Assembly (NCBI GenBank): GCA_964016885.1
Contig: OZ024748.1
Location: forward strand, 21,700,001-21,764,000
From: Eledone cirrhosa
Taxonomy: Eukaryota
Reading direction: 5' to 3'
Length of the DNA: 64,000 bases
Shown: positions 61,120 to 64,000 of the stretch, one piece after another
How positions within the stretch are numbered: position 1 is the first letter of the stretch
Layout: each line of letters begins with the position of its first letter
Program-made: the position numbers and the translations under genes
Notes under the pieces: model-generated
The model's input: the letters and a program-made list of their open reading frames with translations, nothing else
What the model was told of the DNA's origin: nothing
Databases searched by the model: none

Positions 61120-61494
61120 TACAATATTAAATAAATGGAAAACTATATTTATAAAACCATATCTATTTCATTATATATATTTCGGGGATATCATATTAAC
61201 AATATGCTATGCCTTCATCAGACAAAATACAATATAAACAGTTTTATAGATAAATATATTCGACATACCGTAATAAACATCAACTTCATTTGGAGAGGTT
61301 TACGCTAGCAGTAAACCTCTCCAAATGAAGTTGATGTTTATTACGGTATGTCGAATATATTTATCTATAAAACTGTTTATATTGTATTTTGTCTGATGAA
61401 GGCATAGCATATTGTTAATATGATATCCCCGAAATATATATAATGAAATAGATATGGTTTTATAAATATAGTTTTCCATTTATTTAATATTGTA
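61120..61494. repeat. Perfect inverted repeat, 184-bp arms, 7-nt spacer
   Basis: 61120-61303 is the reverse complement of 61311-61494. Confidence 0.92.
61385..61450 (+). ncRNA. Type I hammerhead ribozyme motif (mirror copy at 61164-61229 on - strand)
   Basis: UAUUUUGU-CUGAUGA-14-bp stem II-GAAA-UAUAUA-UA|AUGAAAUA. Confidence 0.68.
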
Positions 61495-61934
61495 TATATA
61501 TATATATATATATATATATATAAGATCAAAAGATGGTTAAAGGAGTTCCATGTATTTTATTATGCGCATTTCAAAAACAAACATCATCATGCAATAATAT
61601 TTGTGTTTTCATCAGATAAAACAGGAGAACATGATGTGAAGGTGAAGGCTAAAAAACACTTGTGGATAGTGCAGTTTTAAATCAACATATGAAAAGTAGT
61701 TTTAGATTGATGTGTGATATTGGGGAAAATATTTTATTTAGAGAGGGGGGGGATGAAAAAAGGGGAGGAGATGAGAGTGAAGGTGGAGAGGGAGAGATGG
61801 GTGATAGAGAGAAAGAGATAGTTTTTATAACTGATCTTATATATTATGTATACTCCAGTCCTACAAACTGTAGAGTGCTTCTTATCCGATATCTGCATTG
61901 CTTTATTGTACTACAATAAAACTCACCTCCTACA

Positions 61935-62642
61935 TTATATATATATATATATATATATATATATACACACACATATATATATATACACACACACATATAT
62001 ATATATACATACACACATATATATATACACACATATATATATATATATGTATACACACATACATATATATATATATAAATACATACACACATATATATAT
62101 ATGTATACACACATACATATATAAACACACACACGTTTATATATATGCACACACACATATATATATACACACACATACATATATATATATACACACATAC
62201 ATACACACACACATATATATATATACACATATATATATATATGTATACACACATACATATATATATATAAATACATACACATATATATATGTATACACAC
62301 ATACATATATAAACACACACACGTTTATATATATGCACACACACATATATACACACACATACATATATTTACACATACATATATATATATACACACACAC
62401 ATATATATATATATGTATACACACATATATATATATATAAATACATACACATATATATATATGTATACACACATACATATATAAACACACACACGTATAT
62501 ATATATATGCACACACACACATATATATACACACACATACATATATTTACACATACATATATATATTTATACACACATATTTACACACACATATATATAT
62601 ATATATTTACACATACACACATATATATATATATTATATACA
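61935..62642. repeat. Compound (TA)n/(CA)n microsatellite
   Basis: direct; similar tracts at about 17365, 20160, 29165, 29525, 44425, 60470, 63000 and 63570. Confidence 0.95.
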
Positions 62643-62644
62643 TC

Positions 62645-62689
62645 TCTTATCTGATGACCTTATACAGGCGAAACTCCAGAGTAACAATA
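62645..62689 (+). ncRNA. Type I hammerhead ribozyme motif
   Basis: ucuuau-CUGAUGA-CCU uauac AGGc-GAAA-CUC ca GAG-UA|acaaua. Confidence 0.62.
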
Positions 62690-62874
62690 TTCGCTATTTA
62701 GCCTTAGTAAAACGAATATTTAAATTACTGGTTGAGAGAAAAGTACATATATATATTGTTATACTTTGGGAGGGTCATGCTGTCAATAAAAAACATACGC
62801 ACCTGTGTTTTCACTTCAATTTATTACACATTTCAGGCTGGTTAGTTTAATAACCGGATGGTTGTTCATTTATT

Positions 62875-62919
62875 GTCAAAGCTCTCTTTCGTCACACAAT
62901 CTGTGACCTCCTCAGTGAC
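62875..62919 (-). ncRNA. Type I hammerhead ribozyme motif
   Basis: GUCA-CUGAGGAG-GUCACA gauug UGUGAC-GAAA-gagagc-UU|UGAC. Confidence 0.68.
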
Positions 62920-63378
62920 CAATTTATTTTGTGTCGCTCCTTTGTTCTGACTTAACATTGAAAAAAAAAAAGACGAAAAACTGCGAATTATATTATGTAT
63001 ACACACACACACACACACACACATTTTTTTAATATATATATATATATATATATATATATATATATATATATATATATATATATATGTGTGTGTGGAGAGA
63101 GAGAGAGAGAGAGAGAGAGAGAGAGAGAGAGAGAGAGAGAGAGAGAGAGTTAGTTCCAACAACAAATTAGCAAATCATACTTCAGTTCTTGAGTATGGTT
63201 TACTAATTTGTTGTGGAACTAACTATACCGAACTCGTCCACTGGACTCTACTTACTACGGAAATAACCTCCAGTTTTATTTTTACCTAAAAGATGTCAAC
63301 ATCTGTTATTTTTATCTAAAGACATTTTTTCCAAATCCACCCCGTCCGTCCCTTCAGTCTGTCTTATTCCTCATTCTT

Positions 63379-63414
63379 TCTTCTGATGAAAGACTAGCGT
63401 CCGAAACGTCAAGA
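63379..63414 (+). ncRNA. Minimal type I hammerhead ribozyme motif (Penelope-like)
   Basis: UCUU-CUGAUGAA-aGAC UAGC GUCc-GAAA-CG-UC|AAGA; stem I UCUU/AAGA. Confidence 0.78.
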
Positions 63415-63682
63415 CCTTCTTCCTGCTATTTTAAGCGTTAACCTAATATATTCATTCCATATACTGTACCTATTGTGTTGTTATTTCTGTTTACCTTTTA
63501 CATATATATATTTCTTTGTATATATATATATACACACACACAACTTACCTGTCTTCTTCAAGATCTGTTTTATATATATATATATATATATATATATATA
63601 TATATATATATGTTCATCCCTCATATATTCATTTGTATGTATATATATATATATATATATATATATATAGGAAAAAATATGA

Positions 63683-63776
63683 CCCCGACGGCAGAGCTCA
63701 AGCCGTTTCGACGGCTATTTCTGGACTAAATTAGAATGTTTAGCCTGGTGAATAAATAGCCGAACTTTTCAAGGGG
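63683..63776 (-). ncRNA. Degenerate type I hammerhead motif
   Basis: CCCC-uUGAAaA-..CGGCUAUUU...AAAUAGCCGuc-GAAA-CGGC uugagcucu GCCG-UC|GGGG; core has two substitutions. Confidence 0.5.
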
Positions 63777-64000
63777 GGGGGGGGGTACTTCCTTATATGG
63801 GAAAATTGTAGTTGTCAAGAGGATTGGTTAAAATTTGTTGTAAACACAAATAAGTTTATCATGGCATTTGATGGGAGGTAGGGGTGGCTGAACTTGCCTG
63901 TAGTGAGTGGAGCAGTCAAGCGTTGAAAGTGATATGTATACAGCAGAATAGTGTATGAAGTGGAGGAGGGAGGTTATAAAATAGGTAAATCGAATGAGAG

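Follow-up and report, generated by a model that had tools for sequence, protein, structure and literature searches.

The window analysed here, a 64-kb stretch of AT-rich animal DNA from Eledone cirrhosa, carries a USP-like gene at its left side and, on its minus strand, a NO VEIN-like gene (12444–57299). The latter gave a match to OST-HTH/LOTUS at its N terminus, a weak match of the sacsin type, and a NOV_C domain; the NOV_C domain was located at 12444–13034 (−) by a Pfam search of the frames, with an E-value of 6e-20. The likely start codon of this NOV-like gene is at 57266, and a cluster of hammerhead ribozyme motifs lies 3.9–6.5 kb from it, which bears out the distance of 4–6 kb upstream given in the preliminary description of this DNA. 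No link between the cluster and the NOV-like gene was shown. Four strong splice-donor-like sites were found between 57.3 and 64 kb (60679–60930, 60087, 61927, and 63549), all on the minus strand and three of them beside microsatellites, and two tandem motifs at 60888–60930 are presumably of the ETS type. The segment 60679–60930 and the minus-strand donor-like sites possibly represent the promoter and 5′ exons of the NOV-like gene, in which case the cluster would lie within about 200 bp of its start. Other repeats in the window included an intronic PiggyBac-like transposase remnant (DDE_Tnp_1_7, 33428–34697), fragments of RTE-type LINEs at 13661 and 40182 that matched RT and PHD, and intronic minisatellite arrays at 3502–6117 and 25052–26559 (54/67-bp units; 27-bp unit × 56).

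Six hammerhead motifs, termed A to F, and a mirror copy of A were identified within 2.7 kb (61120–63780). The C3 positions were 61393 (+) and 61221 (−) for A and its mirror, 62651 (+) for B, 62915 (−) for C, 63383 (+) for D, and 63772 (−) for E. These five cores and the mirror of A had been reported before and were all found where they had been placed, whereas the sixth motif, F (core 61615, −), had been overlooked. An intact core (CUGANGA or its U3-A8 variant, GAAA, and UH) was present in all six motifs and the mirror, and A, C, E, and F were complete three-stem motifs. A G10.1-C11.1 pair together with one additional nucleotide following A9 was found in A and C and not in the local B, D, and F; E was irregular in this part. 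A short palindromic stem III, which the preliminary description gave as a trait of Penelope-like elements and retrozymes, occurs in A, D, and F but in neither B nor C, and in E stem III forms a 5-bp hairpin. The orientations of the motifs alternate along the cluster (−, +, −, +, −, +, −), and the inserts meet tail to tail on TA tracts in three pairs, A/F, B/C, and D/E.

A scored three-stem descriptor, composed after the motifs had been seen, yielded five matches with scores of at least 28 in 61120–63780 (A, the A mirror, C, E, and F) and one in the rest of the window; the mean over 2000 dinucleotide shuffles of the non-microsatellite part of the region was 0.001 and the maximum was 1. F obtained the top score, and B and D failed this descriptor because of their lesions. 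A relaxed type I descriptor with no demand on stem II, likewise composed afterwards, gave seven matches in the same interval against a shuffle mean of 0.07 (maximum 2; 2000 shuffles). The excess over shuffled sequence expected from the preliminary description was therefore obtained, and the motif density was not reproduced by shuffling. In the rest of the window, the relaxed descriptor matched at six places, including a well-formed motif at 29320 and a match at 44318. The match at 44318 sits in an apparent coding exon and was rejected as a false positive.

The covariance-model match to a hammerhead family that had also been proposed was not obtained with Rfam. No hammerhead family was returned by scans of the whole 64-kb window at E ≤ 5, the only scan covering A and F, or of 62630–63010 and 63150–63800 at E ≤ 10; the matches obtained were microsatellite-driven miRNA models. 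That none of the six families was matched by Rfam points to a gap in its current models. In minimum-energy folds, all three stems were formed only in E, stems I and II were formed in F, C, and the motif at 29320, and A, B, and D were misfolded. The folding z-scores were weak for all motifs except E (z −2.1), and a MAFFT alignment of eight motifs did not bring their structures into register.

Unit A is a head-to-head palindrome whose 3′ ends face outward. Its left, inverted arm (61122–61303, −) carries the mirror hammerhead at 61164–61229, and its right arm (61311–61492, +) carries hammerhead A at 61385–61450 and has its 3′ end on a (TA)15 tract (61493–61522), the tail-to-tail meeting point of A and F. 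The arms are identical at 189 of 190 positions, the adjoining TA letters included. Hammerhead A has its core at 61393 and its cleavage site at 61442, and its extra nucleotide after A9 is an A. A transcript spanning both arms was predicted to fold back into a long duplex (about −291 kcal/mol), in which hammerhead A would be buried. The unit has a tail on the left only (61030–61114, −), which contains a stem-bulge-stem hairpin (61092–61114) recognized by descriptor match and by fold.

On the other side of the (TA)15 tract, insert F (61523–61830, −; 5′ limit approximate) carries a hammerhead at 61553–61623 with its core at 61615, its cleavage site at 61561, an 8-bp stem I, a long stem II, and the palindromic stem III. 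An inverted 10-nt copy of the 3′ tip of F (61832–61841) is followed by a tail with a hairpin at 61852–61879, and we infer that this whole stretch (61832–61935, +) belongs to unit F. The stem-bulge-stem hairpin is the same in the A tail (−) and the F-side tail (+), and a descriptor for it, defined after the fact, found two matches in the window, both at the A/F units, against a shuffle mean of 0.008. Plain alignment of the two tails was weak, the same similarity being reached by 55 of 2000 shuffles. A and F appear to be related through their tails, in which the hairpin motif is the one strong feature.

Inserts B and C are located between a 705-bp (TA)/(CA) tract (61936–62640) and the (CA)n, (TA)27, and (GA)27 tracts at 63001–63149. 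Insert B (62641–62746, +) holds a hammerhead remnant at 62645–62689 (core 62651), and insert C (62747–62952, −; 5′ limit approximate from depth) holds a hammerhead at 62875–62919 (core 62915, cleavage site 62879). Reads from four sequencing runs were placed on 62641–63000, and thus on families B and C only, at a likeness of at least 80%, which favours conserved copies. In the best run, the summed contig depth, which is not equal to copy number though its scale is clear, was about 11 at single-copy positions, 17,000–31,000 over the 3′ half of B (62665–62700), 216,000 over the ribozyme of C, and 1.56 million at the 3′ tip of C. B and C are high-copy dispersed repeat families. The depth of family C fell steeply toward its 5′ side. 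Family C was also present, again at high copy, in runs of two other organisms and family B was not, indicating that the two families have different histories.

Within the 45-nt ribozyme of C, variants in at least 15% of reads occurred at none of the 33 constrained positions and at 3 of the 12 free positions, compared with 19 of 128 positions in the flank (Fisher P 0.014). The variable free positions were N7, which is the only position varying within the core of the family, loop II, and loop III; the local copy has gained 2 nt in loop III relative to the family, and many reads were clipped there. No compensatory stem-pair changes within a family were detected in the B and C read data at the 15% threshold.

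The 3′ end of family C was found in two states. In the first, (TA)n is joined at 62747 (146 contigs, 3208 reads), and in the second, a conserved 58–80-nt extension starts from 62753 (104 contigs, 5734 reads); opposite-strand joints were also present among the reads of this family. An ATG at 62778 (−), about 100 nt past the cleavage site, opens MTLPKYNNI in the window, and its frame stays open in the hand-read extension consensus of three runs, with the pattern F-N-x-x-F-Q-I-K/R. The extension contains another open frame as well, and the consensus agreement was 0.57–0.94. These features are suggestive of the family C tail being the start of its ORF.

The depth of family B was 228 at 62653–62664, an approximately 75-fold drop relative to 62665–62700, and one B contig had three extra letters behind 62658. 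These results suggest that the local B lost part of the 5′ strand of stem II, and the stem II now readable is probably the remnant of a deletion. The B hammerhead is predicted to be inactive. The family has a G at 62688, which restores a stem I pair of B. An interpretation of loop III of B as a decayed CG palindrome was rejected, as no difference at 62678 reached 15%. The last 20 nt of B (62727–62746) resemble an inverted piece of the sequence after the B paralog (20120–20146).

Insert D (63225–63501, +) carries a minimal hammerhead at 63379–63414 (core 63383, cleavage site 63410) and has its 3′ end on TA. The local copy has an A10.1-C11.1 mismatch. A paralog at 28360 showed 81% identity, and the two copies have G-to-A changes at different positions of stem II, which implies a textbook minimal hammerhead for family D, including an inferred G10.1-C11.1 pair. 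This dead paralog (28360–28584, +) is accompanied by an inverted D 3′ end (about 28670–28722, −), with a TA tract between them; at 28583–28722, the D-family 3′ ends face each other across this tract, the inner letters of which are an inverted duplication. A 77-nt near-perfect hairpin (63148–63224; −40 kcal/mol, z −13) separates the (GA)n tract from insert D and is possibly another fold-back stub.

D and E meet tail to tail at TA/CA tracts with short unique pieces (63502–63669). Insert E (63670–64000, −), which may run off the window, carries a hammerhead at 63683–63776 that was matched by the three-stem descriptor; it has a U3-A8 core (63772), a 4-bp stem I, a 5-bp stem III, a GUC site at 63687, and a long helix II. 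E had been described as degenerate, which fits the mismatched base of its stem II but not its core, a U3-A8 covariant known from PMC4209133.

Further copies of these families, and one further hammerhead, were found elsewhere in the window. A head-to-head fold-back of family B 3′ ends, without the first half of the core, is located between TA tracts at 20011–20155 and includes the B paralog at 20011–20108; the B and D paralogs break off at differing 5′ points. Another well-formed hammerhead (29210–29330, −; core 29320) has a 3′ flank ending on (TA)26 and is weakly similar to A (z 4.2). The NOV-like gene has this motif in one of its introns, in sense orientation. Pairwise alignments among the six inserts indicated no convincing similarity, and a short opposite-strand match between F and E (z 3.3) is probably fortuitous, given the number of comparisons. 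The earlier claim of five unrelated families is overstated, as there are six inserts, A and F have the tail hairpin in common, and A aligns weakly with the motif at 29320. No inverted second copy was seen in the window beside the local B, C, D, or E.

The cleavage site is 17–122 nt from a TA junction in all six inserts. (TA)n of at least four units was found within 17–122 nt downstream of the cleavage site in eight of the nine motif copies in the window, compared with 10% of background positions having such a tract within 135 nt. Together with the 146 contigs in which C joins (TA)n, this agrees with the earlier proposal that the elements abut (TA)n as inserts of distinct retroelements. Four of the five independent strong matches fell within 2.4 kb, an interval chosen after the fact, for which P was 0.001 under uniform placement, 0.003–0.007 per TA tract, and 0.086 to 0.10 when weighted by TA bases. 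The TA-weighted clustering is weaker because 40% of the TA-tract bases of the window fall at 61000–63800. Of the microsatellite landing-pad hotspot proposed for this locus, the clustering under uniform placement and some enrichment per TA tract remain; the TA-weighted value (P about 0.09) is not significant. The cluster is real, but it mostly follows target abundance.

Here, we propose that the six motifs are 5′-truncated 3′ ends (pseudo-LTRs) of six endonuclease-bearing Penelope-like element (PLE) families, serially inserted into neighbouring (TA)n, and we regard this as highly probable. The PLE origin suggested in the preliminary description is in accordance with the anatomy, i.e., 3′ hammerheads, TA junctions, inverted units, and optional one-sided tails. 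Truncation at the 5′ side and dispersed multi-copy occurrence were observed for B and C in the reads and for D in one paralog. Inverted copies were represented by the arms of A, the 10-nt tip of F, the B paralog, and the opposite-strand joints in C, and optional one-sided tails by A and F, with the two-state 3′ end of family C. None of the inserts could be linked to an RT or GIY-YIG sequence, and a Pfam search of 21 frames, six of them in or near the cluster, detected no PLE domain; truncated copies are expected to lack the RT/GIY-YIG ORF. Metagenome contigs, scanned for motifs of families C and D, and viral contigs, scanned for motifs of C, gave no matches.

Considering published PLE biology, the GIY-YIG nuclease of a PLE would nick AT-rich DNA, and the reverse transcriptase would initiate internally on the RNA, at one of two closely spaced sites, so that some ends have a tail and others lack it. 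Reverse transcription would stop early, often leaving an inverted second copy. Each insertion would leave TA on both sides, so that later insertions would have more nearby targets and would nest. Selection on the ribozymes would have taken place in the RNA of the parent elements, where they probably acted as dimers or with the help of protein, and the hammerheads at this locus are likely decaying passengers. E and F are predicted to be the best candidates for residual cleavage, and B is predicted to be dead and D impaired.

It is unlikely, in our judgement, that some or all inserts are instead complete short non-coding elements, SINE-like or retrozyme-like, that bear a hammerhead of their own and are propagated in trans. 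The units are short (100–330 bp) with no ORF linked, B and C are of very high copy number, and sequences that differ outside stem I have the C ribozyme module in common (loose ends at 62919 and 62885), as such elements would show. However, no tandem array was present, which is the defining trait of metazoan retrozymes in the accessible text of PMC7229834; the depth of C decays gradually on the 5′ side, as truncation would give; the different 5′ end points of the B and D paralogs also speak against complete elements, as does the frame of the ATG at 62778, which is open into the tail consensus of C.

Far less credible is domestication of the cluster as an array of alternating orientation, with the role of cutting read-through transcripts or antisense RNA from upstream beside the NOV-like promoter. 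The alternating orientations, the clustering beyond uniform (P 0.001) and per-tract (P 0.003–0.007) placement, and the possible promoter or first exon at about 60680–60930, with motif labels that we assume, are in line with this idea, but head-to-head insertion units themselves yield alternation and the TA-weighted clustering is not significant (P 0.09–0.10). In addition, the local copies are worse than their families (stem II loss in B, a loop III longer by 2 nt in C, and the 10.1-11.1 mismatch in D), and the runs of two other organisms had no coverage at single-copy positions of 62641–63000. We give equally little credence to the nest, including a monomer-competent E and an intact F, being kept by selection as a two-way RNA-cutting barrier upstream of the NOV-like promoter. 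The probability that the motifs arose by chance in DNA rich in AT and repeats, as the lack of an Rfam match, the relaxed-descriptor false positive at 44318, and the weak folding z-scores except for E could suggest, is negligible in view of the seven observed versus 0.07 expected matches, the constraint in family C, the restored stem I pair in B, and the two-copy support for D, and a chance origin is already refuted for B, C, and D.

As a probable nest of truncated PLE 3′ ends, the cluster adds six ribozyme-bearing Penelope-type tail families; the element is of a known kind with an ordinary mechanism, and decayed PLE tails in TA-repeat tracts are an already described kind of genomic debris. E and F, as putative ribozymes, would provide natural variants for cleavage assays. 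The hairpin in the A and F tails and the family C tail, which apparently coincides with the ORF start, like that of the only PLE examined in vitro, bear on how PLEs begin reverse transcription.

Minimal hammerheads occur in PLE pseudo-LTRs, with the extra nucleotide and the U3-A8 variant, and single motifs are derived from truncated PLE copies, while opposite-strand pairs are 100–700 bp apart (PMC4209133). E departs from these minimal hammerheads in its long helix II and in its helix III, whose 5 bp could allow folding as a monomer; in B and C, loop III is not palindromic. No octopus motif is named in the accessible text and one supplement file of PMC4209133. Minimal hammerheads of PLEs self-cleave weakly, as dimers or assisted by protein, and full-length PLEs are arranged as partial tandems. 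The tails found here are about 60–95 nt, in comparison with 30–40 bp for published PLE tails.

PLEs are known to have inverted copies, one-sided tails, and a (TA)n bias, and one of them, Hydra-1_Obim, is from Octopus bimaculoides (PMC8557442). The locus resembles the Hydra clade in (TA)n targeting, the hammerhead near the 3′ end, and a helix III like that of B (PMC8557442); the (TA)n insertion and the 3′ hammerhead are present here, though neither is exclusive to that clade. The RT and EN features that define the clade are RWK and DKT motifs, a CxCX5C linker, and an EN without CCHH, all of which belong to an ORF that the inserts lack. The hammerhead of Hydra-1_Obim, as given in the accessible part of that paper, was matched by none of the six motifs by eye. 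The tail hairpin of A and F has, by eye, the same design as the tails of Hydra-2_Amil and Hydra-2_Ajap and the start of Hydra-1_Ajap, but its outer pair is A-U, whereas that of those Hydra-clade consensi is G-C (PMC8557442). Being common to the A and F tails and resembling Hydra-clade tails, the hairpin is a candidate start or docking signal for reverse transcription. A search of mainly open-access literature found no paper on the tail hairpin of such elements or on such a multi-family hammerhead cluster. Naiad PLEs, remnants of which occur in cephalopods, are similar in (TA)n targeting, inverted copies, and tails (PMC8557442). Membership in Naiad was rejected, as Naiads have no canonical hammerheads according to the accessible text of that paper and A, C, E, and F are complete three-stem motifs.

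In Poseidon of Anolis carolinensis, two reverse-transcription start sites define a tail that lies inside the ORF start, and hammerhead cleavage is protein-assisted (PMC11167929). Poseidon is similar to the present elements in its two alternative 3′ ends, its AT-rich targets, and a tail within the ORF start, as family C appears to have; it differs in that its ORF starts inside the hammerhead, whereas the ATG of C is about 100 nt past the cleavage site (PMC11167929). Non-LTR retrozymes are tandem 150–450 bp repeats whose canonical ribozymes yield circular RNAs; what they have in common with the inserts is a type I hammerhead within short non-coding repeats of low GC content (PMC7229834). The retrozyme origin raised in the preliminary description was not upheld: no unit forms a tandem array, and Tandem Repeats Finder detected only microsatellites in the interval. 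Retrozyme membership was rejected, the units being single or inverted and no unit being shared among the six inserts. In Octopus vulgaris, 31 recently active PLE families have been reported, and the repeat library of that species may already hold the families described here, judging from the accessible part of the report (PMC13282606). Strict membership rests on a link to an ORF, and the cluster works like a nest of PLE 3′ ends and very probably is one.
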